A stretch of DNA of 64,000 nt from a virus. Taxonomy: Duplodnaviria; Caudoviricetes. The stretch covers positions 1 through 64,000 of the IMG/VR virus record IMGVR_UViG_3300037067_022526. The stretch is one strand, 5' to 3'. Positions 1-48,806 of the stretch are shown in pieces. Positions within the stretch are counted from its first letter, which is position 1. Each line of letters starts with the position of its first letter. Made by a program: the position numbers and the translations under genes. The notes under the pieces were generated by a model. That model saw nothing but the letters and a program-made list of their open reading frames with translations, ran no database searches and was not told where the DNA came from.

Positions 1-3000
1 GCTCGTGAATAATAATAAGCACCACTGGTACTTCCAGTGGGAAGTCCAGGACCTAGAATATGATTAGGACGACCATACGTGTCATAGCCATAACTGGTAG
101 TGTAATAAGTATTATTCGGATCACTGACTTGCGCGCCTGCAAAACGACCATCGATAGCACCATTAAAATCCCTATTAATAACCCAATTAGGGAACATAGA
201 CGATGAACCGAATGTTTCTTTGACTAAACGATATTCATTGGGGTCATTGGCATCGGCTATGCTAAAAGTTCTCGTCCCAACGGCATCGGTAATTTGTGAT
301 ACCTGTCCAATTCTGTCATATTGAACACTGATAGTTGGGGTTATATTTGGATCGCTATATGTTATACTTGTTAAATTAAGGATATTATTTGGATCATATC
401 CGAAAGTTGATATTTCATTTCTGTCCCACGTTCTAGTATGAATCCGGCCATCTGGGGTATAAGCATAATTAATTTCTGAGTTATCATTATAAGTTTTTTT
501 GTTTAATAATCCTGAGTACTCATCGAATTCCCATTCTGTGACATCTGCAGTGCCATTACTGTCCCGATATTTGCTCAATGATATTTTTTGCCCATAGTCG
601 TCATATTCAATTTCAAATTTGTACTGAGGATTTCCGTAGACGCTTGTCTTGTGCCCATGAGTGTCATATCCAAATAGAACAGACCTGCTTAGCGGGTCGG
701 TGATTGATTCTAACTTACTAGAATAAGCACCGTTGCCAGTTTCGCCCGGATCGTAATATGAATAGATTGTTTCCTCGTCGTTATCAGATGTAATACAATC
801 TATCCTACCGGCATTATCGTAAGAAATAGCGGTTTCGATTCCTCGCTCATCTGTGAAGCTAGATTTTCGGCCGAATGAATCATAAGTATAAATTGTTGTC
901 GTTCCAGATTTGTCGGTGAATTGCATAATTCGGTTGCCATGCAATATAGCCGAAAGATTTGTTGTACTATCCGGATAATCAACTGTAATAGTTGATAGTG
1001 ATTGCGATGGGTCAACCGAAACAGAAATATCTGTCGTTAAGTTGTGAACTTCATCGGTAACTCTTACCTCGCTAACCAATCCGATGGAAAACCCGGACAT
1101 CCTAAGTGCTATTGTTTTAATGGGAACTTCAGTGCTACTATCGGTTGGATATGTACTAGATTCAATGATTTTCCACCAATTATTAGAACCGTCCTTTTCG
1201 AATTTTGTCCCTGTATCTACAACATAATCTGTGCTAGACAAATCTAAAGCACCATTGTTTCCAATATCAGTACCACGTCGATTTATTTTTCCCATCGCAT
1301 CGTATTCATATCTGGTCGAAGGGAGAGTCACAGAAGAAGTTGATTTTGAAATTGAAGACAGTAATCCTGTTACATTATCATAATTATAAGTATTAGTTAT
1401 AGCATCATTAGGGTCATTCCATGCTGGTCTTTTAACCGATGAAATCTTTCCTAACATATTGTAGGTTTTTTCGGTGTATCGCACTGAATTAGAGTCATCA
1501 TATTTCATTTCTGTTATAGTGCCAGCTCCAGAACTATATTCGAATTCACGATATTTGGGCAAGGCGCCGCTAACTGATTTAACTCTGCCATCGCGATAAT
1601 ACGATATAACTCGATCTCTTAGCCCGGCGGTTCCCGAAGTTGCGCTGCTGGCATAATCAAAATATGTCAATATCTCTCGGTTGGTTGTATCATACTCATA
1701 CATTGTTTTGAGTGTAGCGACGCTGCCAGAATGACTATTTTTTGTTACTGCGATCAACCTTCCGGCCAGATCATATTCTTCAATTATTTGTTTTGATAGA
1801 GATCCGGAATTGCCCGTAATTATTGTTTGTAACGGTGTATCATAATTATAGCTTGTTATAATATCATCCTGAGTATAAGATCCACCAGATGGAACGCTTG
1901 CGGTTATCTCTGATATCCTATTCAACAAATCTAGTTCATATGTGGTTGAGATACCCGTAACGTCGGTAATAGTTTGACTGCAACAACTTCCATATTCGAT
2001 ATTATAATGTTGTCCGGTATTATAATACACATCGCCTAGTCTGGTTTGTCTATCACTTGAGTCATAAATATAATTAGCCCAGAAAATTGTATTAGTAGCG
2101 GCAGGGAGAGTAGATGTATCGGTGTTTATGTAAACCGCTGTGAATTCATAAACAAGTCTGCCTCTAGAATCTATTATGGCCACATCTACAGTAGATTTAT
2201 ATGGTAATGCTACAAAATTAGCCCCATCCACATATCCGTGTATTACCTGTCTATACCTATAACCATGCCCATCATCTCCATTGAGACTCCACGTTGGTTG
2301 TTCGGTAGATGGAGAATTTGTTGGCGTGAAACTAATTACATCATCATATGAATAAAGATCTTTGTGCCCATCGGGATATTGAATTGAAATTACGTCTTCA
2401 TGTGAACTGTCTCTATAGGTTATAACAGATGTCAATCCGGTGGAACCGCTCGGATTAGTCCTTGTATATTTCGTCGTAATATTGGGGTCATTCGAGTCAT
2501 AACTGTAATCAATATATTTGGTGTAATCACCATCTGTTCTGCTAACCAGAGACGCAAGACGATAATCTGATGCTGCATTGTATGTCATCTCTATCGACTT
2601 AACGCCAGAATCGTCTGCGTCCGGGCAGGTACTGGGATACGTAGTATCGCCCCAGCCGGTTATTATGGTTTCTGTCAAATTATTACCGTTTTTAGCAGAT
2701 TTATACCATGCCCACGAACCACCAGGATACTGTTCGCTTGTTAAAACAATTCCATTTGTGAGATCATAAGTCCAATTCGTGATAAGTGCATCATTCGCGT
2801 CGTTGGGATCTACAGGATAAATTGTTTTTTGAATCGGGTATGGATAAGTGCCATAAAAATTACATAGCACTTCTTCGTGATATACTTCAGTTGTGCCTAA
2901 ATGGCTAATGGTATGAGTGTATGTTGTTTCGCTTGGCTCATTGGGATCGGAATTCCATGTGAGTGCTTCGCTTTGCAACGTGGTAGTGTCATCAAGATAT

Positions 3001-3965
3001 GTTAAATCCCAATCTAAATCTGATACGCTTCCCGTGTACATAAATTTAATACGAGGAGTAGAGCTATTGTTCTCGACATATTCGGCTATTCGAAGTCTAT
3101 TATAGCTTGACGATGTATCGGGATTATCAACGACCCACTTTTTAAAGAATCCTTCTCCAGTTTGGTCGTAAATTCCATTATCTAAATCACCTATATCATT
3201 GCTTCCATAAAAAGCAATTGAATAAGAGTATTCATTAATATCAACAATATCAACAAGCAAAAACGGAGCTGATGATGGACCAACAAGGATTTGTCTTAGA
3301 ACCGATGAATTATTGGGATCATAAATAACATCAATGTCCGATTCATTTGTGTCTGCAAGAGTATATATTAAATTTGTTGGTTCCGACAAGTCTTCGGTTG
3401 GTTGTTGGGCAGATATTTCCAAATAGCCAGCTGGATCTCCATCGGACCGAGTTCCCAGATTGAATCTAGCATGCATTCCATTAATATCTAAAAATGTGTG
3501 GAAATTAGGGCATGTGATACAGCTATTTTCAGCGTAATTATTAGCATAGTTATTATAGTTATCTCCGACTACATAGAATGACATTTCAAGTTCCAGGGGG
3601 GTATCATCGCTTTCTTTTCCGCCGCATGGAATGGCCATATCATCTACGGTTACAAACATTTTATAAAATCCCACTTCATCTGCGGTGAAAGTGGATATTT
3701 GTGTTGAGCTAAGTTGGGTATACAGGCCACATGGTTTGCATATCCAAATTTTGCTGATATAAACCTCATCTATGTCACCGCCGCCAGTGTCCATATCACG
3801 AAAACAACTCGCTGTTATCGGAATCTGGCTGCCCAATTGGACTAAAAAGACTGGTGGTTGAATCATTTCAATTGGCGGATCAGCCCAGCAAGTCGCATGC
3901 ACTTTTGGTGCAACTAGGCACATTGCCATGAAACATAGCGAAAGGATTAAATTTTTAAAATTCAC
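1..3965 (-). CDS. Rhs/YD-repeat protein with N-terminal signal peptide (3' end runs off the window)
   Basis: Manual translation: GGAG RBS then GTG at 3965, MNFKNLILSLCFMAMCLVAPKVHA (signal-like). The same frame is open at about 10 spot checks down to position 1, with YD motifs (ISYDNAGRI, YGYDTYGRP). Absent from the ORF track because no stop lies in the window. Confidence 0.85.
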   Translation of the reverse strand, partial: MNFKNLILSLCFMAMCLVAPKVHATCWADPPIEMIQPPVFLVQLGSQIPITASCFRDMDTGGGDIDEVYISKIWICKPCGLYTQLSSTQISTFTADEVGFYKMFVTVDDMAIPCGGKESDDTPLELEMSFYVVGDNYNNYANNYAENSCITCPNFHTFLDINGMHARFNLGTRSDGDPAGYLEISAQQPTEDLSEPTNLIYTLADTNESDIDVIYDPNNSSVLRQILVGPSSAPFLLVDIVDINEYSYSIAFYGSNDIGDLDNGIYDQTGEGFFKKWVVDNPDTSSSYNRLRIAEYVENNSSTPRIKFMYTGSVSDLDWDLTYLDDTTTLQSEALTWNSDPNEPSETTYTHTISHLGTTEVYHEEVLCNFYGTYPYPIQKTIYPVDPNDANDALITNWTYDLTNGIVLTSEQYPGGSWAWYKSAKNGNNLTETIITGWGDTTYPSTCPDADDSGVKSIEMTYNAASDYRLASLVSRTDGDYTKYIDYSYDSNDPNITTKYTRTNPSGSTGLTSVITYRDSSHEDVISIQYPDGHKDLYSYDDVISFTPTNSPSTEQPTWSLNGDDGHGYRYRQVIHGYVDGANFVALPYKSTVDVAIIDSRGRLVYEFTAVYINTDTSTLPAATNTIFWANYIYDSSDRQTRLGDVYYNTGQHYNIEYGSCCSQTITDVTGISTTYELDLLNRISEITASVPSGGSYTQDDIITSYNYDTPLQTIITGNSGSLSKQIIEEYDLAGRLIAVTKNSHSGSVATLKTMYEYDTTNREILTYFDYASSATSGTAGLRDRVISYYRDGRVKSVSGALPKYREFEYSSGAGTITEMKYDDSNSVRYTEKTYNMLGKISSVKRPAWNDPNDAITNTYNYDNVTGLLSSISKSTSSVTLPSTRYEYDAMGKINRRGTDIGNNGALDLSSTDYVVDTGTKFEKDGSNNWWKIIESSTYPTDSSTEVPIKTIALRMSGFSIGLVSEVRVTDEVHNLTTDISVSVDPSQSLSTITVDYPDSTTNLSAILHGNRIMQFTDKSGTTTIYTYDSFGRKSSFTDERGIETAISYDNAGRIDCITSDNDEETIYSYYDPGETGNGAYSSKLESITDPLSRSVLFGYDTHGHKTSVYGNPQYKFEIEYDDYGQKISLSKYRDSNGTADVTEWEFDEYSGLLNKKTYNDNSEINYAYTPDGRIHTRTWDRNEISTFGYDPNNILNLTSITYSDPNITPTISVQYDRIGQVSQITDAVGTRTFSIADANDPNEYRLVKETFGSSSMFPNWVINRDFNGAIDGRFAGAQVSDPNNTYYTTSYGYDTYGRPNHILGPGLPTGSTSGAYYYSR

Positions 3966-6111: not shown

Positions 6112-6924
6112 ATGACGATTTCGTGTAAATATATCAACTGCCCAGATACTCATTTTTCTGACAAAAATTTAAATGACAGAATTTTTCCCGATGATTTTAT
6201 TAACCACATTATTTGTGGTGATTGTTCTGTTGTTTTAAAAATTATCCCAAATTCATCTATTAATTTGATTATCACATCTCCGCCGTATTTTGTGAATAAG
6301 AGTTATGAAAACACATGGACTTTTGAAGAATACTCTTTTTTGATGAATTGTGTATTTAAAGAATGCTATCGTATTTTACAACCAGGCGGATATGCTGTTT
6401 TTAATTTCGGCGATTATTTTAATAAGGACCGATTTTATGAAGCAGAAGTGCCAAGTGTTTATCCTGCTTCAATAAATTATTTTCAATGGGGCAGAGATGT
6501 TGGATTTGATTTACAGGCAACTCGTATTTGGCGCAAGCAATTTTCACGCATGTCAATACCGTTTGTATGTAACACTCATCCACGACCAATTTTTGATTAT
6601 GAGCACATTTGGACATTTCGTAAACAAGATGGAACTGGCAAAGAATTTGTAAATGATCGTAAAAAATCTCAAAGAGCCGTTTTAGGAGAAGATTGGACTG
6701 CGCCTGCTAAATTACAAAATCACGAAGCAGCTTTTCCGATTGATTTACCCCTGTGGGCTATCGATGTTTATGCTCGGCCGGATGATATTATTTTAGATCC
6801 ATTCGGGGGCATAGGAACAACAATGTTGGCTGCCATTGAAAAGAAGCATAAATGTATTATAATTGAGAAAAATGAAAGCAACTGCAAGTATGCATATCGT
6901 AGAATTAGAGGGCAGGAGATCTGA
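6112..6924 (+). CDS. DNA methyltransferase, beta class, probably N4-cytosine
   Basis: IITSPPY catalytic motif precedes ILDPFGGIGTT SAM-binding motif; HEAAFP. Confidence 0.9.
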   Translation: MTISCKYINCPDTHFSDKNLNDRIFPDDFINHIICGDCSVVLKIIPNSSINLIITSPPYFVNKSYENTWTFEEYSFLMNCVFKECYRILQPGGYAVFNFGDYFNKDRFYEAEVPSVYPASINYFQWGRDVGFDLQATRIWRKQFSRMSIPFVCNTHPRPIFDYEHIWTFRKQDGTGKEFVNDRKKSQRAVLGEDWTAPAKLQNHEAAFPIDLPLWAIDVYARPDDIILDPFGGIGTTMLAAIEKKHKCIIIEKNESNCKYAYRRIRGQEI

Positions 6925-7394
6925 AATGCGGAGAAATAAGTGAGCAGTCGAGCGTTCCTGTCTGAGAACTGGCATCAATCTCCAGCAGTTATTGTTTTTA
7001 AATGTCAACCCGTGCCGCTTTTGCTCTGCTTTGCACAACTAGGGCATGCAGGAGCGTGGCAGTATGGCATATGTATGCACAAACTACAATCAGAAGCGAT
7101 AGGTCGTTTTTCTTGCCCGAAATGTTCTGCCACGTATACATTACGACAATATCCCGGGTTTTGGCAACTCAAAGCGGACAGTCCCATGAACCCCAAATTG
7201 GAAGATATACAAACATTTTCAGTGAACCAAGAATATAAGAACTGCTTAGTTGATTGAAGGTGAGCCACCGTGGAGTGAAAAATAACCATGCGATAGAAGC
7301 GAAAGAGGACAACCGGAGCCATCTGCCGTAGAACAAAATATGTTACGAGCTATCTCCAAACGATTGATCCCCGGGCATCGCAAATGAGGAAGAT

Positions 7395-9041
7395 ATGAGC
7401 CAGACCGTTCGTACCCGTTTCGCGCCGTCGCCGACCGGCTATTTGCACATCGGCGGAGCGCGGACGGCGTTGTTCAACTACCTGCTGGCCAAGCGGCTGG
7501 GCGGGAAATTCGTGCTGCGCATCGAGGACACCGACCAGACCCGCAACATCGAGGCGGCGGACCAGAAGCTGCTCGAAGACCTGCGCTGGCTCGGACTGCA
7601 GTGGGACGAGGGTCCGGAGGTCGGCGGACCGCACGGGCCCTACCACCAATCGCAGCGCCGCAAGCTGTATGACGAGCACGCCCGCCGGCTGCTCGACGCC
7701 GGCCAGTCCTACTACGCCATGGAGACGCGCGAAGAGCTCGACGCCATGCGGAAGGCCGCCCAGCAGCGCGGCGAGAAGGGCTTTCGCTATCCGCGGCCAA
7801 CGCACTTCCCGTCCGATGCCGAAGCGCAGCAGGCCCGCGACGCCGGCCGGCCGGTGGTCGTCCGCTTCAAGATGCCGCAGCGCGACTTCGTCGTGCCCGA
7901 CCAGATCCTTGGCGACGTGGCGATCGGGGCGGCGGAGCTGAGCGACTTCGTGATCGTGAAGAGCGACGGCTGGCCGACGTACAACTACGCCGTGGTCGTC
8001 GATGACGCGTCGATGCAGATCACCCACGTGCTCCGCGGCCAGGAGCACCTGATGAACACGCCGGGCCAGATCGCCCTCTACGAGGCCTTCGGCTACGCGC
8101 CGCCCGAGTTCGCGCACCTGCCCATCATCTTCAACATGAGCGGCACGAAGATGAGCAAACGCGAGAAAGACAAGGTGGTGCGTGACGCGGCGAAGGCGGC
8201 GCAGCTCGACGATGCGCGCCTCATGACGCTGGCGGGCGTGGACGACGCCGCGCTGGCGTCCTGGCGCAAAGGCGACACGCAACTGCCGGGCGAGGCCCTG
8301 CAACGGTTGGCCCGCGCGCTGCACGTGCGCTTGCCGGAAATCGAGATCCACGATTTCCGCCGGAGCGGGTATTTGCCCGAAGTGCTGGTGAACTTCATCG
8401 CGCTGCTGGGCTGGTCGCCGGGCACGGACCAGGAGAAGTTCACGCTGGCGGAGCTGTGCCAGGAATTCCGCGTGGAGCGCGTCGGCAAGACCAACGCCCG
8501 TTTCGACCGGGACAAGCTGCTGAACTTTAACACGACGGCGCTGGAGGCGGCGCCGGCGGCCCGGAAGCTGGCGGCGTTTCGTGATTTCCTCAGCGTGAAT
8601 GAGCCGGGGCCGTTGACCGGCCTCGACGATGCGCAACTCGCGCACCTGATCGAGCTCTGCCAGGGGTTCCGCACGTTCCCGGACATCGAATACAAGTGCG
8701 GGGCGCTGTTCGTCCCGGACGCGGCCGTGCGCTACGACGACGACGCGCTCAAGAAGCACTTGTTGAAGGGGGAGTCGGCCGGCGTGAAGGTGCTGACGGA
8801 GATGCGGACGCGGTTGGCGGCGCTGGACGACTGGTCGCCGGCGCGGCTCGACGGCCTGATCCGCAGCTATGCCGAGGAGCATGGCCTCGGGCTCGGCAAA
8901 GTGGCACAGCCGCTGCGGGTGGCGGTGACGGGGACGACGGTGAGCCCGCAGATTTTCGACACGCTGGCGGTGCTGGGGCGGGACCGGACGCTGGCCCGCA
9001 TCGCGCGCACACTGGAAATGGTGGCCGGCGCTGCGAAATAG
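7395..9041 (+). CDS. gltX: glutamate--tRNA ligase (GC-rich, foreign composition)
   Basis: RFAPSPTGYLHIGG, LRIEDTD, THVLRGQEH, KMSKR, C-terminal PLRVAVTG...SP; GAGGA RBS. Confidence 0.97.
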   Translation: MSQTVRTRFAPSPTGYLHIGGARTALFNYLLAKRLGGKFVLRIEDTDQTRNIEAADQKLLEDLRWLGLQWDEGPEVGGPHGPYHQSQRRKLYDEHARRLLDAGQSYYAMETREELDAMRKAAQQRGEKGFRYPRPTHFPSDAEAQQARDAGRPVVVRFKMPQRDFVVPDQILGDVAIGAAELSDFVIVKSDGWPTYNYAVVVDDASMQITHVLRGQEHLMNTPGQIALYEAFGYAPPEFAHLPIIFNMSGTKMSKREKDKVVRDAAKAAQLDDARLMTLAGVDDAALASWRKGDTQLPGEALQRLARALHVRLPEIEIHDFRRSGYLPEVLVNFIALLGWSPGTDQEKFTLAELCQEFRVERVGKTNARFDRDKLLNFNTTALEAAPAARKLAAFRDFLSVNEPGPLTGLDDAQLAHLIELCQGFRTFPDIEYKCGALFVPDAAVRYDDDALKKHLLKGESAGVKVLTEMRTRLAALDDWSPARLDGLIRSYAEEHGLGLGKVAQPLRVAVTGTTVSPQIFDTLAVLGRDRTLARIARTLEMVAGAAK

Positions 9042-9094
9042 GCGGTATAATAGGCATAGCGGCGTGGTCCTTTCAACTTGTGGAAATACCCCTC

Positions 9095-9193
9095 ATCAAC
9101 TACCCAATGGCTAAAGACCATTGGGCTTGCTCCAATAACTAGAACGATTCCTCCACGAAACTAAAGATTTCGTGGTTTCCTTCGCTCAATCAT
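9095..9193 (+). mobile_element. 99-bp ends-only IS200/IS605-type miniature element (PATE/MITE-like)
   Basis: ATCAACTAC start; hairpins CCCAATGG-CTAAAGA-CCATTGGG (9103-9125) and CCACGAAA-CTAAAGA-TTTCGTGG (9153-9175); followed by ATGA; end layout matches the IsrB elements at 26810 and 47499. Confidence 0.75.
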
Positions 9194-9280
9194 ATGAATA
9201 AATAGAGGGCAACTGGGTTTATCCCCTGCGAAGTGTCAACCTGGTATATAATCGAGATGAAATATTTTAAAGGAATTTAC

Positions 9281-9308
9281 TTGACTTTTCCCGTATAGGT
9301 GGTATAAT
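9281..9308 (+). promoter_or_regulatory. sigma70-type promoter
   Basis: TTGACT-16 nt-TATAAT with extended -10 TG. Confidence 0.7.
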
Positions 9309-9323
9309 ACTGTCGGAGAACAG

Positions 9324-9464
9324 ATGAAATGACCATAGCCAAGACAAAACGATTTAGCTTTAAGCGAATACCAGAGAAAGTCCTGAGTATGGCATAGATT
9401 TATTTAAGTTTATATATTCTTACCACCCCAGGCAACCAAAAAGAAGCTTGGGGTTTCTTTTTGG
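9324..9464 (+). promoter_or_regulatory. putative leader peptide plus attenuator
   Basis: ATG-AAA-TGA overlapping a 22-aa uORF (9329-9397); two mutually exclusive stems, 9426-33/9446-53 (followed by a U-tract) and 9436-45/9455-64. Confidence 0.45.
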
Positions 9465-10325: not shown

Positions 10326-10399
10326 CCGAGGGAGCGCATTTGGTAAGTGCGGGCAGTCTTATACACTGCTGTTAATGGGTTCGATTCCCGTCTCTCGGA
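10326..10399 (+). tRNA. tRNA-Ile(UAU)
   Basis: acceptor CCGAGGG/CTCTCGG; anticodon arm GCAGT-CT TAT AC-ACTGC; T-arm ATGGG-TTCGATT-CCCGT; no encoded CCA. Confidence 0.8.
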
Positions 10400-10408
10400 T
10401 CAGATTAT

Positions 10409-10483
10409 GGACCAGTAGCCTAATTGGTTTAGGCAGGAGACTGAAGATCTCTGCATTGTCGGTTCGAATCCGGCCTGTGTCCA
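10409..10483 (+). tRNA. tRNA-Phe(GAA)
   Basis: anticodon arm GGAGA-CT GAA GA-TCTCT; T-arm GTCGG-TTCGAAT-CCGGC; acceptor stem has a 1-nt bulge. Confidence 0.75.
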
Positions 10484-10486
10484 TTA

Positions 10487-10558
10487 GGGAACGTGATGTT
10501 AATGGTAGCATTTTCGACTCTTAATCGAACCGTGCGAGTCCGAATCTCGCCGTTCCCA
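10487..10558 (+). tRNA. tRNA-Lys(CUU)
   Basis: acceptor GGGAACG/CGTTCCC; TTCGA-CT CTT AA-TCGAA; atypical T-loop TCCGAAT. Confidence 0.85.
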
Positions 10559-10560
10559 TC

Positions 10561-10634
10561 GGGAGCGAAGCTGAGCAGGCACAGCACTAGCCTTTTAAGC
10601 TAGGGTTTTGTGGGTTCGAATCCCACTGCTCCCA
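10561..10634 (+). tRNA. tRNA-Lys(UUU)
   Basis: acceptor GGGAGCG/TGCTCCC; CTAGC-CT TTT AA-GCTAG; GTGGG-TTCGAAT-CCCAC. Confidence 0.85.
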
Positions 10635-26252: not shown

Positions 26253-26813
26253 ATGTCGTGGTTATTGAAACTTTATGGTTCTAATGTAAGTATTGATGAC
26301 CGCGCTGTTGAAAAAAAATTAATTATTGCCGATCGGGATAACCCTAGAATTAATGACACAGAATGGGACAGAGTCCAAGAATTGTTAAACGGCGATCATC
26401 CGTTATCGACGTTTAGACATAAGCACGATTCTGGTGCCCCTCGTAAAACCCAGTTGAATTTGGGCCCTGGTATGGGGTCACAAGATAGAGGAAATTCTGC
26501 TGGCGGTATGAACGCGGCTGGCGACGAAATGGAGCGAAACGACCCTCGAACACCTCGGTCATGGTATAATGAAGGGGATGCGCAGGCAGATGATGAGACT
26601 GGACCTGGAAATAAATCCATTATGCCAGCACCAGATGGAAGCCGTAATGATGGATACGCAGCACAGAGAATTTTTTTAGATAATGTTGATGCGTTCAGTC
26701 CTTTTATTGATAGGGATAACTCCCCACAGTCAGTGGTTCAGAAGAAACATTTGAATAGTATTTTAACATCTCGGCCTGTGCCTCCAAAGAGAGTTTTTGT
26801 AGATAGAAAGTAA
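26253..26813 (+). CDS. hypothetical protein; stop codon supplied by the IS end
   Basis: ORF ends AAG-TAA where GTAAACTAC is the element end. Confidence 0.75.
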   Translation: MSWLLKLYGSNVSIDDRAVEKKLIIADRDNPRINDTEWDRVQELLNGDHPLSTFRHKHDSGAPRKTQLNLGPGMGSQDRGNSAGGMNAAGDEMERNDPRTPRSWYNEGDAQADDETGPGNKSIMPAPDGSRNDGYAAQRIFLDNVDAFSPFIDRDNSPQSVVQKKHLNSILTSRPVPPKRVFVDRK

Positions 26814-27075
26814 ACTACTCTATGATAAATTCAAGGAGCTTGTGAGCGATGGAACACAACGTAAGAGTTTACTAGACTAAGAAGAAAGGAGACTATTATT
26901 CTACGTTAAGAGAACTACAATCACCCCGGAACGCCACCCTAATTCCAGGCTCTGAGCTAGAACCATTTAATAGCACGTTATTCTAGTTAATAGCTAAGTT
27001 TTCTTAACATTGTCGAAGGGTAGTATATTAGAGGTTCTCATAGCACCCACTTATCGTAAAGCTATGAAATTTTAG
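26810..27075 (+). ncRNA. omegaRNA scaffold, copy 1 (guide would lie in the upstream flank)
   Basis: non-coding segment upstream of the isrB start; CTACGTTA and AACATTGTCGAAGGG motifs typical of HEARO/omegaRNA. Confidence 0.8.
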
Positions 27076-34573: not shown

Positions 34574-34981
34574 ATGATTATTCCCGCAGGGAAACATAAA
34601 CACCAAGTTAATCAGGGTGGTCGCAAAAATGAGACCATTATGGACAGTGACATATTTAGTAAATTGGCAGCCGAACTTGGAGCTGTCAAAGATCCAATAG
34701 ACAAACCAGAGGTATCCATAGAAAATCCACAACCAGAACGACCTGACCCATCTGGCTCATCTGACCCATCGATACAAAATGCCGTCGAACAAGGCACTTT
34801 GGCACAGAATGCGCCGCCGAAGCCAGCAGAATCACCTAAATTAGACTGGAAAACTGTTGCGGCCCAAGTCGAAGATTTCGTACAAAAAATTTCAAATGGC
34901 ACTCTTGAGGTAAAAGACCAAAAAAGAGGGCCCGATGGCACATGGACTATAACATTCGGACCAATAGGAGTGGCAAGATAA
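34574..34981 (+). CDS. hypothetical protein
   Basis: GAGG RBS; operon packing. Confidence 0.65.
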   Translation: MIIPAGKHKHQVNQGGRKNETIMDSDIFSKLAAELGAVKDPIDKPEVSIENPQPERPDPSGSSDPSIQNAVEQGTLAQNAPPKPAESPKLDWKTVAAQVEDFVQKISNGTLEVKDQKRGPDGTWTITFGPIGVAR

Positions 34982-35979
34982 TGAAGCTGTCAGGACATTC
35001 ATATAGCAATGACGTATTCGACAGTCTTATGGATAACATTCAAAGTGACGTTATTTATAAAACAAATAAAGTGAGTTCATCAGATTCCCCAATCTCAAGC
35101 ATGGACGTATTTTCTTCCATTACTGAGAACGATTTGCAAGAGATACGGGAAGATATGCGAGGGGATATTATAAACGAACTGCAATTTGCTGCAGATAAAG
35201 CAAACGTTGTCATAGCAAAAGATGATGTCGTTAGGTTTGCAAAAGATGCAGAAAAAGATGGACTAAGAGGCAAAGAGCTTGAACGTGCAGCCCAAAAATT
35301 CTGTAATAAGATTTCCAGCGCAATTGCTCCACCACAAAGTTCATCCCGCAATTCGTCTGAATTACTGCTTACTGCTAATAACTCAGCAGTTATACCTGCC
35401 GGTTACAATCCAGAGCACGGACCCAGTGATTCTAAAACTGGCGGTTATATGGGTATGTCTCAGAATCCTAATACAATTTGGGACTCTGACGCATTAGATA
35501 TTCTTGCACAGAAACAAGCAGGCGATGAACAAATAAAAGAGTCCAAGAAAAATATGGAAGAATTTAAGAAATCTCAGAAAGAGCAGTATTGGGATGAAAT
35601 TCAAAAGCAGGGATCCGATGCTAATGTACTAAAAGAAAAAGTAGCGTCGGTTGCTAATGTTTCAACGTCCGAATCCAGCGCTGGGAACCAGAATCTTCCG
35701 TCCAATTCTATGAGTATTTTTAGTAATGATAGGGATTTTTCCAATATACCAGATTCTACAACGGGTGAATCGATCAAGAAGTCAGCACAGGAAAGAGCCA
35801 ACAAAAAAGAGGCATCTAAATCTGAATGGAATAAAGTTGAACCTGCCAAAAAGGTTGACAATCTCGGCATATTAGATACTCCAGAATCAAAGAATACTAT
35901 TAAAAAGAACAGCCATAGAGAATCTGTTGACCAACTTTTTGAGGGGCTTCTTGAAGCCGGATTCAATCCAGAGAGCTAA
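34981..35979 (+). CDS. hypothetical protein
   Basis: AGGAG RBS; TAATG coupling at 34981. Confidence 0.7.
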   Translation: MKLSGHSYSNDVFDSLMDNIQSDVIYKTNKVSSSDSPISSMDVFSSITENDLQEIREDMRGDIINELQFAADKANVVIAKDDVVRFAKDAEKDGLRGKELERAAQKFCNKISSAIAPPQSSSRNSSELLLTANNSAVIPAGYNPEHGPSDSKTGGYMGMSQNPNTIWDSDALDILAQKQAGDEQIKESKKNMEEFKKSQKEQYWDEIQKQGSDANVLKEKVASVANVSTSESSAGNQNLPSNSMSIFSNDRDFSNIPDSTTGESIKKSAQERANKKEASKSEWNKVEPAKKVDNLGILDTPESKNTIKKNSHRESVDQLFEGLLEAGFNPES

Positions 35980-47400: not shown

Positions 47401-47502
47401 AAATTTTCCGGGGAATCCTTCGGAGGCGATGCTCAACAACAAGAATCGTCGTTTTCTAAAGCTAAATATACCTCAGTTAAAAGTGAGGAGTTTAAACAGT
47501 AA
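38491..47502 (+). CDS. portal protein with six inteins and a C-terminal DUF559-like domain (791 aa after splicing)
   Basis: located between terL and the protease; exteins join to EIYQW-CRFFYD-SEPKVAAAIDFY-SRFP...GDVF...LNPDWI...YGTSLIRR; six Hint domains with LAGLIDADG motifs. Confidence 0.85.
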   Translation: MGNIILPDDPNWKQPLIMGDPFEQGLTPKSAQEKRNKEFDKQRESEGNVFKYANSAVAHHPEPWLKNAQVTGVSNMMTNPMWFSPLHTPQNWQIASKRREIYQWSYVTSDKNPCYLVNYGDFSLDDIKNVYTKWQNNFADRGKMYIQNDKGKKAKPDICTKRYVEKKANRIKVLGNPHPIEVTHDHKCIVIKREDVKCPKGISRSKNCIFQACSPTCERVKCKDYENKNYNISTINAEDVKKGDYVLCPFPTEVKESIIKTKEQARFAGHLASDGWISQNNFPITNVCMHPDETEYVLSSVSPVFESFGAVVKQESFGNNKVVVVRSGKKSLHEYSSKLVKGKNTDKHFTEEVMLLNPELQKHVLGAYIQSDGSFNKTIEQIEITTVSKHLAYQLQIMCYRNKILAFCSKQPRRQGKGSFKTTNLEYYIVSIPKTFVYTLQDYVPGKIPERIYKPQQKLGGSSGVNFIKNGKNISRIYNRFFWKNYVVTPVVSNTSFDYKGDVYDIRVPPTHAITANGIAIHQCRFFYDCFTPDNLVLMANGTEKSISQIVPGDMIVAGDGSIQQVNNVFRRWTKEKVLSIHVAGSNIPIKCTTNHRIPRVSKESWQQSCETTPSERRKRERKESFGETSLEETFDSADTLSTSSYLFTPQSSIGTGMGWDLRKCYLLGAFTAEGSYFYYNYKPTNKHTPKGVRFSINSNEIGDENKFGNRIQNYLSIFQNHKVSTTYNGNCAEIRATDKNLANEIMEFCGHGATQKSITGQFISQANKEELLSFLAGFIDGDGCYSTTMGCQIITHSDDLASQIAFICEKLGITFSTTTTNNIRKNNNFKGHNIRISRFACEILKPYSVKINNLDTNHTKFREYLFINNKLYRKVNKISESTYEGWVYDLEIDKVHSYCVNRCVVHNSEPKVAAAIDFYCFTPDTQILMSDGTQKSISSIMPGEIVRSHTGKANKVLRTFSRQSSEDILKITYAGVLCGKLKLTLGHKVLTEKNGEIKYVQAQELQVGDYLLTPCGYDAEGEWENGLVDDFAYLVGVYAAEGCGMPYEHISNRGRIISYYKGVKFAISQEEQSFCDTIVEKIKILYGDCKISLVPDKNSKKLEIRVYGRSIADDLIGICPGTSSDGTKRIIPHIIKNWNARQMASFVSGFYDGDGCYQNNAPTVGLGVCKRLLEQVANILDRLGIEYTFAKRRPTGLGRQQVYIVSIPRREMPKFTHLSAKKIIWNSYNQHFRRNWSIFKKGKYVYRAIIKIEQSPYDGALYDMEVENDHSYVVNRISVSNSRFPMNGFKLECKDPKILKFFEHKAAKRLSLNENCKMISSECHMLGDVFIHMDVECPVCQGIGVNPDSGEICNHPGGNFKKMRILNPDWIEVQQNIMADEPSIVFVPDEELKRIVFYKQPKNIYDRIPNAIKSLVLQNKPIPLSNRTTSHLKYMPVPYGTYGTSLIRRLFTTLAYKTKIMTANWIVAERLILPVRVVQIGSDDRPATSADIADVQQQLAATANDPNLTIVTHHNFKYEWYGACHDDQTEVLTDTGFKTYDQVDITKDKICIYNLEENKTECIYATDKYVYDYDGEMIHFHNRRLDILVTPNHKMLYRWSNKDSWKTEEASELKCSTRLLGAAKFEGFIKSGGSIYAKEDKYYVRIGDSSIELSKFCKFIGYYLSEGTLNNKKSNYHVAIYQNTSKECFSDIEDTMSDMGFHVTEYADNRNPDDCRFIISNKELVTFINEHFKHGSLNKTIPNWIKNLPRNYLKLIFNSMINGDGYRHPTVNTESFTYTTVSKSLADDIQEIAFKCGYSTCIRKAKKPDYKSFGKNTIYRVHISMGKFSNGSYPIVREKDITRVPYKGKVWCFTVPTGFFVTRRNGKITIQGNSGKILQITQEMEYIGKEILDGFMLNQSLLNGEMCIPETDKMLTKSGLKNLNQIDKDDEIATFNKETGMLEYQKPTEIHVYDWNDDLIHFRTDRIDFACTPNHRMLYQKRDSDKWIVDTADKVSDRVKFRKRVNWLGGEVPENVIVGDNEISVDQYVALMAYYVTEGYTRKESRTARKTYKQPISLCVYQSVKGKGYNDVCELFESLPYKYSHDEKHDSFAIHNKTLAMYLQMECGDGSYNKHLPDWVKELPRPYLQKLLRHMINGDGSIRTRDRGEPKQYYVYYTRSRQLNADILEVALKCGYWPRYRYSEKRGYELAFSDYDLNKETLPLESKKYKTITRLPYKGKVWCVTVPNGFIITERNGKLSIHSNSGYQSAQVGVETLIRRIESWRHTLAEWIQERIFKPIAEMQGFIDNEESEEIGELSFIYPEIKWNDLNLKDKTQYFQLLNQLHDKQLISSQTLLEEMDFKWDQEVKRMRYEQAQAGPMGMGAGLGGAAGGAGGMPLGGGGGGAGGPPMPGEGAPGMAGGVGGMDMGMGGGGMPGAMPATAGAGGKIMKPGKEKKFEQQKTDGQMMNAMPVKLTSIEQKVADTLVGLSQMYRINPQKIRVQFPVQNPHGGPPYQLDFALPDLKLNVECLLPGAVIETDNGYKKVEDVLSSDKLFDKYGKHTKIVHKFVQEYDGEVAKICAIGMFNLDVTSSHKLWISKPKKTRVVRDEPRITRTREYLQPDIPQFICVKEAEVGDYVIIPKRKTNSTSRIINLQQYITNNCKKIPEQINLDIKTSRLLGIYVAEGCASDSGSIVFSFSENEKDYINETETLMDEIFGIKLGKIYFGKGAARVYFQSTPLSKFFNEVCGKYARNKKVPSMMFNTSEENIKSFIQGVMDGDGCMRNESEWRIQTSSKSLALGIQQLCATIGIWAPIVISRIDGTYNIRGRSGIQHSLFEITINWNPRKRRYREDDDYFYIPIRKIIFSSYSGIRYNFETEDHSYCVNNMVSKNCDGDIWHSNPEQASDDQKRDNTLAQRGWTVLRFDDKAIEETPQAVRNTIGKFINAILESKKSKTASTDEFGAAKLYTAKSGEIYDLRDEYNKFVKTKFSGESFGGDAQQQESSFSKAKYTSVKSEEFKQ

Positions 47503-47765
47503 ACTACTCCAGTCTAAAGACCGGGAGCTTGTGAGTGATGGAACACAACGTAAGAGTTTACTAGACTAAGAAGAAAGGAGACTATTATTCTACGTTAAGA
47601 GAACTACAATCACCCCGGAACGCCACCCTAATTCCAGGCTCTGAGCTAGAACCATTTAATAGCACGTTATTCTAGTTAATAGCTAAGTTTTCTTAACATT
47701 GTCGAAGGGTAGTATATTAGAGGTTTTCATAGCACCCACTTATCGTAAAGCTATGAAATTTTGGA
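47499..47765 (+). ncRNA. omegaRNA scaffold, copy 2
   Basis: about 270-nt non-coding region before isrB, near-identical to copy 1. Confidence 0.8.
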
Positions 47766-47771
47766 GTTTAT

Positions 47772-48806
47772 ATGTTTTTCGTACCAGTAGTAGATCAGAA
47801 CAATAATCCACTAATGCCTACAACTTTATTAAGAGCTAAGAGATGGGTTAATTCTGGCAAAGCTACTCCATTCTATAAGAAAGGTATATTTTGTGCTAGA
47901 CTCAACGTAAAGACACCAAACACTCATAAACAAGAAATTGTGGTAGGCATCGATCCTGGCTCTAAACGAGAAGCCTACACAATTAAATCAGAAGCTCACA
48001 CTTATCTAAATATTCTAACAGAAACGCCTGACTGGGTTAAAGATGCTGTAGAGCGACGTAGGAACATGCGTAGAGCTAGAAGATTCAGAAACACACGTTA
48101 TCGTGAAGCCAGGTTTGATAACAGAAAATCAAAGAAATTAGCCCCTAGCACAAAAGCCAGATGGCAACTCAAATTAAATATATGTAAGTGGCTAGAGAAA
48201 ATTTTCCCAATAACACACTATGTAGTAGAAGATATTAAAGCTAAGACTTGGAAGAATGCCAAGAAATGGAATGTAAGTTTCTCTCCATTAGAAGTAGGCA
48301 AACAGTGGTTCTATGAAGAAATAAAACAACTAGGCATCTTAGAAACCAAGCAGGGATATGAAACCAAAGAATTAAGAGATAATGCTGGTTTGAAAAAAAG
48401 TAGTTCTAAGCTAGACGATAAATTTGAGTGCCACAATGTAGATAGTTGGGTATTGGCTAACTGGTTAGTAGGTGGGCACGTAAAACCAGATAACACTTCT
48501 ATTATTAAGCTAGTACCTCTTAGGTTTCATAGAAGACAATTGCACGCTTTGCAACCTTCGACTGGTGGAGCAAGGAAACCTTATGGTAGTACTAGGAGTT
48601 TGGGGTTAAAACGAGGTAGTTTAGTTAAACATAAAAAGTATGGTTTGTGCTACGTTGGTGGTACAATGAACGACAGGATTAGCGTGCATTCATTGAACGG
48701 TGGTAAGAGGCTGGCTCAGAATGTGAGGGTGGAAGATTGTGAATTTAGAACTTATTTAAGCGAAAGGAGAAGTCGTCTTCCCTCTACGGGGGTTAAATCT
48801 CTGTAG
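47772..48806 (+). CDS. isrB: IsrB RNA-guided nickase
   Basis: PLMP, RuvC-I GIDPG, bridge helix RRNMRRARR, RuvC-II VVEDI, RuvC-III HNVDS; 344 aa with no HNH. Confidence 0.88.
   Translation: MFFVPVVDQNNNPLMPTTLLRAKRWVNSGKATPFYKKGIFCARLNVKTPNTHKQEIVVGIDPGSKREAYTIKSEAHTYLNILTETPDWVKDAVERRRNMRRARRFRNTRYREARFDNRKSKKLAPSTKARWQLKLNICKWLEKIFPITHYVVEDIKAKTWKNAKKWNVSFSPLEVGKQWFYEEIKQLGILETKQGYETKELRDNAGLKKSSSKLDDKFECHNVDSWVLANWLVGGHVKPDNTSIIKLVPLRFHRRQLHALQPSTGGARKPYGSTRSLGLKRGSLVKHKKYGLCYVGGTMNDRISVHSLNGGKRLAQNVRVEDCEFRTYLSERRSRLPSTGVKSL

Follow-up and report, generated by a model that had tools for sequence, protein, structure and literature searches.

How could a gene of about two-thirds GC come to stand, whole and alone, in the genome of an AT-rich phage? 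This question is raised by a gltX gene, encoding glutamate--tRNA ligase (GluRS), in the Caudoviricetes record IMGVR_UViG_3300037067_022526 of IMG/VR. The window analysed here is the first 64 kb (64,000 nucleotides, nt) of this 137,762-bp virus record, and the genome-wide figures given below cover all 137,762 bp. Judged from the letters alone, the gene had been taken either for a very recent capture from a high-GC host, with Planctomycetota suspected, or for an assembly chimera. The reading that we hold to be fairly probable is a real and very recent capture of a Phycisphaerales gltX into an intergenic site of the phage, in which the donor would most likely be the host of the phage.

Origin, extent and age of the gltX island

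In the record, gltX is set in the genome of a genuine phage and is bordered by phage DNA on either side. Large terminase, ribonucleotide reductase (RNR) and DNA methylase are all recognized by PHROG matches, and the record is classed as virus in IMG/VR. Within this genome, positions 7379-9064 of the window have a GC content of 67.5%, compared with 38.2% for the rest. The sliding GC profile displays a block of 0.64-0.71 between ~7350 and 9100, while the surroundings lie at 0.30-0.44; the 1-kb windows outside the island have a mean of 0.382 (standard deviation 0.033) and a maximum of 0.500. The GC content at third codon positions (GC3) is 0.909 for gltX versus 0.27-0.37 in nine long phage open reading frames (ORFs). 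Consequently, the contrast of two-thirds against one-third GC and the GC-ending codons, which had first been estimated by eye, are borne out by measurement.

Relatives of the encoded protein were sought among 5.8 billion protein clusters, as well as by genome and metagenome scans. Its close relatives are all ~545-560 amino acids (aa) long, and the named ones belong to Phycisphaerae or Planctomycetota, in the protein clusters and in the scans alike. The best full-length relative is encoded on L081, a metagenome contig of 7,164 bp with uniformly ~67% GC, to which the identity is 94% for the protein and 89.4% for the nucleotides of positions 7379-9064. A near-identical bacterial gltX, for which the original prediction had suggested a BLASTN search, was thus found only in part. 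At full length the match just given is the best, while a 100% identical counterpart is a partial protein of 301 aa, corresponding to GltX residues 248-548, on a separate 26,966-bp JGI contig that could be bacterial or phage. In the maximum likelihood tree of 71 rows, the phage GltX is the sister of L081 (SH-aLRT 100), followed by two Phycisphaerales metagenome-assembled genomes (MAGs), and it lies within two starred sets, of 8 and 15 rows from Planctomycetota, with supports of 98 and 99, respectively. On these sequence comparisons, the origin of gltX in Phycisphaerales (Planctomycetota) is firm, which confirms the suspicion of Planctomycetota and narrows it to a Phycisphaerales-like clade. A scan of the IMG/VR viral contigs for close relatives of GltX yielded none.

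The bacterial similarity has sharp edges. On the left it starts at ~7365, ~30 nt before the ATG, so that the ribosome-binding site is included, and on the right it stops at 9064, 23 nt past the gltX stop, beyond which the similarity to L081 is no better than that of shuffled sequences. Therefore, the foreign piece measures 1.70 kb and consists of a single gene with minimal flanks. Its tetranucleotide usage correlates with the L081 flanks at r = +0.95, and with the phage at r = -0.45. The compositional shift had been described as hugging one full-length gene from 7260 to 9070; the description holds for the gene and for the right end, but the left end had been placed ~100 nt too far outwards.

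The gene is intact. Its frame is uninterrupted over 548 codons, and the protein scores 466.9 bits against the equivalog model TIGR00464 (gltX_bact; cut-off 289.95), with the catalytic domain PF00749 (E = 5e-95) and the C-terminal anticodon-binding domain PF19269 (E = 9e-31). The class I motifs are found as HIGG (residues 17-20) and KMSKR (residues 252-256), which are opposite HVGT and KISKR of 1j09_A. That is, the full domain set and the HIGH-type and KMSKS-type motifs are those of bacterial GluRS (TIGR00464; Thermus thermophilus 1j09/1n78), and the product of gltX would be an ordinary GluRS, charging the tRNA-Glu of the host. Apart from its being borne by a phage, the difference from the T. 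thermophilus enzyme is a 62-aa insertion after KMSKR (residues 259-320), which has no counterpart in the latter. This long insertion had been noticed before, and it is common to the Planctomycetota relatives. Since the close relatives also reach ~545-560 aa, it is a trait of the whole planctomycete lineage and not a novelty of the phage. A non-discriminating GluRS, one that also charges tRNA-Gln where an organism has no GlnRS and depends on GatCAB, was considered as well, on the supposition that GlnRS is missing from planctomycetes. This ground was rejected, since glnS scores above cut-off in 3/3 donor-clade MAGs (G001-G003; 618-659 bits).

When did the gene arrive? The differences between the phage and L081 copies were polarised with six outgroups. 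On the phage branch, 21 changes are GC>AT and 1 is AT>GC, with 24 synonymous and 8 nonsynonymous; on the L081 branch, the corresponding numbers are 21, 1, 25 and 5. The pairwise dN/dS of the two genes is 0.08, and the terminal branches are 0.028 for the phage GltX and 0.036 for L081. As far as its substitutions tell, gltX has not been ameliorated and carries no trace of evolution in a genome with GC3 of ~0.3. With no drift towards AT, the gene would either have arrived very recently or never have been in the phage. A sister phage, represented by a 28,420-bp contig at NCBI, carries both neighbour genes of the island but no protein of the gltX cluster among its recorded proteins, as judged from the protein records. 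Because amelioration is absent, the terminal branch is no longer than that of L081, and no such gltX is on record either in the sister phage or in the Logan and European Nucleotide Archive (ENA) assemblies with identical flanking proteins, the very recent date proposed earlier for the capture is supported.

The donor and the host of the phage

In the proposed course of events, a 1.70-kb piece of a Phycisphaerales chromosome, made up of gltX together with the ribosome-binding site belonging to it and a 3' flank of 23 nt, would have been inserted between the methylase gene and a block containing a PTH2-type peptidyl-tRNA hydrolase gene and four tRNA genes. The donor would most likely be a bacterium infected by the phage, because both DNAs had to meet in one cell, for which infection is the simplest route, and because a GluRS is useful only with a matching tRNA-Glu, which the phage lacks: its genome contains nine tRNA genes, none of them for Glu or Gln. 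Among the codons read by these tRNAs are TTA and ATA, which show the strongest enrichment in the phage relative to the genes of the donor lineage (44x and 42x), and also AAA and CTA. Such a set fits an AT-rich phage that offsets the tRNA pool of a GC-rich host, though with an AT-rich host it would not be surprising either. The nine tRNA genes, located at 10326-10634 of the window and at 98542-99528 of the genome, include Ile(UAU), Leu(UAA), Lys(UUU) and Leu(UAG).

Could the capture be real and the donor nevertheless not be the productive host? The piece may have been acquired through abortive or occasional entry, through another mobile element or by transformation of a low-GC host, and gltX would then be no host marker. 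Several observations speak for such a donor and weigh against the host reading. The phage has 38% GC and the island 67%, and a phage differing from its host by 29 points would be an extreme case; the CRISPR repeat of the phage was not found in 401 sampled Phycisphaerae genomes; and the relatives of its Cas3 carry no Planctomycetota signal, being located on large contigs or, as distant cellular homologues, in Clostridia and Synergistaceae. Among the other phage genes tested, none points to Planctomycetota. All the host evidence comes from gltX itself, and the host link is plausible. The description of gltX as a strong host marker was consequently overstated. On the other side stand the meeting of both DNAs in one cell, the need for a matching tRNA-Glu and the tRNA set, as set out above, and large GC gaps have precedents, since tRNA-rich virulent phages tend to sit well below the GC content of their hosts (PMC13015707). 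A donor other than the host is, in our judgement, unlikely, and the bacterium infected by the phage is still preferred as the donor.

Two CRISPR arrays are present in the phage, at 64942-65240 and 67867-68160 of the genome (942-1240 and 3867-4160 of L164), with the repeat GTTGCAATTCACTCCCC(T/C)TTTC(A/G)GGGGAGAAACAC. Several of the spacers are markedly richer in GC than the phage, as judged by eye. The nearest relatives of Cas3 are 36-44% identical and include proteins on contigs of 141-272 kb, which are probably other large phages. To our knowledge, very few phages of Planctomycetota, or of Phycisphaerales in particular, have been described.

The junctions and the phage record

Are the junctions real? 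It has to be considered that the phage may lack gltX, and that an assembler or chimeric library molecules spliced in the gene of a co-occurring bacterium. Such an artefact would explain why gltX is indistinguishable from a bacterial allele, both in its lack of amelioration and in the length of its branch. The database records also count against a real capture. The exact GltX is recorded in JGI/IMG only, on this one contig, while ten other proteins of the phage have exact copies in Logan and ENA too; in the Logan and ENA assemblies with identical flanking proteins, this GltX is not on record; no fragment of the phage-allele GltX occurs among the shorter proteins; and no second assembly confirms the junctions. 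In addition, the JGI contig with the identical 301-aa partial may be bacterial, and the phage contig already shows what looks like one assembler artefact, an 'inverted terminal repeat' of exactly 127 bp.

However, the anatomy of the locus makes a chimera unlikely. Phage sequence resumes on both sides of the island, and the tetranucleotide usage of the left 7.36 kb correlates with that of the right 128 kb at r = 0.957, compared with a mean of 0.950 among intra-phage chunks. With this common flank signature, two independent false joins would be needed at the same phage position, each within 30 nt of a gene end. Mis-joins in a De Bruijn graph require shared k-mers, which are unlikely to exist at both ends between genomes of 38% GC (phage) and 67% GC (bacterium), and the contig contains no Ns. 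The contig of the sister phage, which is 88-94% identical over five proteins, carries the methylase, PTH2, RNR and a 612-aa protein together; since methylase and PTH2 stand on one contig there, the flanks of the island are true neighbours. Of the two origins first proposed, capture is thus the favoured one, and we regard a real, very recent and possibly polymorphic capture as highly probable. As for long residence of gltX in the phage, with its GC content kept high by selection or gene conversion, phage genes for aminoacyl-tRNA synthetases (aaRS) are often old, lineage-wide cargo (PMC7162821), yet the idea is effectively refuted by a GC3 of 0.91 equal to that of the bacterial orthologues, the 89% nucleotide identity to a bacterial contig, the extension of bacterial homology into the non-coding flanks, the failure to find an IMG/VR relative and the lack of a gltX on record on the sister phage contig.

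The record itself deserves some remarks. The terminal repeat (1-127 of the window and 137636-137762 of the genome) is exactly 127 bp long, after which the similarity collapses at once, and it is the ground on which IMG/VR and CheckV called the genome complete. Base 1 falls within an ORF (3-3965, minus strand) that overruns the contig end. The repeat resembles an artefact of an assembler run with k=127, and therefore the genome may be incomplete. For the gene at 34942-35979 of the window, two lengths are on record: on the 137,762-bp contig it begins at 35029 and encodes 316 aa, and on a contig of 20,782 bp, present in JGI, Logan and ENA, it begins at 34981 and encodes 332 aa. Therefore, a second, fragmented assembly of the phage exists.

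The 26,966-bp contig could be either part of a second phage assembly or the bacterial donor. If it were phage, an edge-truncated product of the gene at ~35,100 would be predicted, and this product is not on record. Its absence would say nothing, however, if the gene were called from start 35029, as on the 137,762-bp contig, since only 24 aa would then be left; the 20,782-bp contig has the whole gene with its other start. Scans of viral contigs with the 349-aa neighbour protein and with RNR yielded no relatives, and neither did a blastn search of INPHARED with the left flank as query. The exact 30-mer left of the island junction also has no match in the viral contigs, a set that may omit near-identical records.

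The neighbourhood of gltX and its possible role

The features of the locus are listed in Table 1. We consider it probable that transcription starting at the putative phage promoter at 6836 reads through gltX and ends at a hairpin within the neighbouring mini-IsrB element; no terminator-like site was found between this strong promoter-like site (6836-6863) and 9153. A structured RNA in the 470-nt spacer upstream of gltX was rejected, with no Rfam match at E <= 1.

Table 1. Features of the gltX locus (positions in the 64,000-nt window; "." denotes a feature without strand).
Feature	Position	Strand	Remarks
N6/N4 DNA methylase (left neighbour)	6112..6924		PHROG match
Promoter-like site TTGAAA-16-TATAAT, 11/12	6836..6863	+	Inside the methylase gene, at its 3' end; putative phage promoter into gltX
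Phage-side spacer	6925..7364	.	440 nt, 0.44-0.47 GC; three ORFs, none on record as a called gene; single copy in genome
Island of Phycisphaerales origin	7365..9064	+	1.70 kb; blastn 89.4% to L081 over 7379-9064, boundary runs, tetranucleotides
Ribosome-binding site GAGGA, arrived with the gene	7386..7390	+	Conserved in L081
gltX, glutamate--tRNA ligase, intact	7395..9041	+	548 aa; TIGR00464, PF00749 + PF19269, PDB GluRS E = 2e-97
KMSKR motif (residues 252-256)	8148..8162	+	Alignment to 1j09_A
Lineage-specific 62-aa insertion (residues 259-320)	8169..8354	+	Gap between two HMMER domains versus 1j09_A; relatives of equal length
Bacterial 3' flank with TATAAT box at 9046-9051	9042..9064	+	Box conserved after gltX in L081 and L083
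30 nt between island and mini-element	9065..9094	.	No L081 similarity above shuffles
99-bp ends-only IsrB (IS200/IS605-superfamily) derivative	9095..9193	+	Begins 53 nt past the gltX stop and 30 nt past the island
PTH2-type peptidyl-tRNA hydrolase, first downstream phage gene	9519..9830	+	PF01981 E = 3.9e-7
tRNA cluster Ile(UAU), Phe(GAA), Lys(CUU), Lys(UUU)	10326..10634	+	

Downstream of the island follow PTH2, a helix-turn-helix (HTH) protein, four tRNA genes and a NUDIX hydrolase. With PTH2 and the tRNAs behind it, gltX therefore heads a translation-related block, and this coherent neighbourhood was counted in favour of a real capture. Most likely, gltX would supply extra GluRS during infection, beside the phage tRNAs and PTH2, and so sustain phage translation, by analogy with the aaRS genes of huge phages, for which support of phage translation has been proposed as the role (PMC7162821). 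The gene may equally be a neutral passenger that has not yet been lost. HipA-type kinases are known to inactivate GltX (PMC7029023), and an anti-HipA counter-defence was tried as a further role; it found no support, with no HipA_C in the three donor-clade MAGs.

Phage-borne aaRS genes have been documented, GluRS included (Al-Shayeb et al. 2020, PMC7162821; GluRS subtree in Extended Data Fig. 7a). As in those huge phages, a GluRS of the host lineage that nests with bacteria is found here in a large phage with tRNAs, translation genes and its own CRISPR-Cas. The present phage, by comparison, has 138 kb and not over 200 kb, and has no more than one aaRS; in the published example the GluRS nests with Bacteroidetes, and this GltX with Phycisphaerales. 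Moreover, the published phage aaRS are 'distinct from but related to' host genes (PMC7162821), whereas the composition of the present copy is untouched, and its product has 94% identity to a protein of bacteria. The carriage of such genes is thus a known habit of large phages, and what sets this case apart is the untouched composition, the trimming to one gene, the distance of 29 GC points and the possible polymorphism.

If the join is real, the locus would be a clean snapshot of the first step in building the translation gene sets of large phages, in which a host gene came whole, with its own ribosome-binding site, beside tRNA and tRNA-hydrolase genes, while its codons had yet to be adapted. 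Through the same locus, an uncultured AT-rich phage would be linked to Phycisphaerales, with an extreme GC mismatch between phage and host.

Next to the island lies a small element of the phage. The miniature IS605 element that had been announced ~50 bp downstream of the gene is real (Table 1), and its ends are homologous to those of an autonomous copy in the same genome. It contains no ORF, and it has two perfect 8-bp hairpins (9103-9125 and 9153-9175), both with a CTAAAGA loop (fold z = -4.1); the second is followed by TTTCCTT, which makes it terminator-like, and the element is flanked by ATGA (9194-9197). The left end (xTxAACTAC, hairpin, GCTTG) and the right end (hairpin, TTTyCTT) can be aligned with those of the two larger elements, at 26810 and 47499, where matches to HEARO, the omega-RNA of IscB/IsrB, are found at 26810-27028 (91 bits) and 47499-48806 (94 bits). 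The latter element continues into a 344-aa RRXRR (IsrB-like) protein (E = 1e-38), while the 305-aa ORF after the former has no RRXRR match. The mini-element is therefore a phage-native, ends-only derivative of the IS200/IS605 superfamily. It shares the left-end motif, the subterminal CTAAAGA hairpins and the ATGA flank with the two larger copies of the phage, as IsrB/IscB (OMEGA, ISC) elements; it differs from such elements in lacking the omega-RNA scaffold and in being present as a single copy in the 137.8-kb genome, which offers no sign of mobility.

Was the island carried in by this element? With no second end upstream, no flanking direct repeats and no transposase nearby, the island was rejected as insertion sequence cargo, and the mini-element is a neighbour of gltX, not its vehicle. 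The end of the island is 30 nt from the guide-side end of the element, and by a rough estimate, given three elements of this kind in the 138 kb, a random placement would come as close in ~0.1-1% of cases. The closeness is at most suggestive of a common permissive or break-prone site. It can be extended to a fuller scenario that we deem very unlikely, in which a virulent 38%-GC phage infects 67%-GC Phycisphaerales, bridges the codon gap with its own tRNAs and is caught, within a population, in the act of acquiring gltX, the insertion having been seeded by a break at an IsrB target. If this were true, the break-seeded insertion would link RNA-guided transposon nickases to the capture of host genes by phages.

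Some minor features may be added. A GGTATAAT box stands right after the gltX stop in L081 (6240-6262), in L083 (~1755-1775) and in the window (9042-9064), so that it came along into the phage; in the bacteria, it probably serves the next gene downstream as its -10 box. In some lineages, the tRNA substrates of GltX are encoded directly behind gltX; such an arrangement was rejected for the bacterial loci, none of the eight having a downstream tRNA.

PTH2-like genes with 44-50% aa identity were found in three otherwise unrelated viral contigs (L161, L162 and L163) of 39%, 50% and 67% GC. In the viral-contig scan, the three matching phages display no synteny with the present one. Since the gene occurs in unrelated contigs of differing GC content, it is a widely shared phage gene of translation rescue. 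Between the mini-element and PTH2, a near-consensus promoter with a TG motif (TTGACT-16-TATAAT) is located at 9281-9308, followed ~150 nt on by a GC stem and a T-run (~9425-9462), with no ORF in between, and the stretch 9281-9462 could encode a small RNA.

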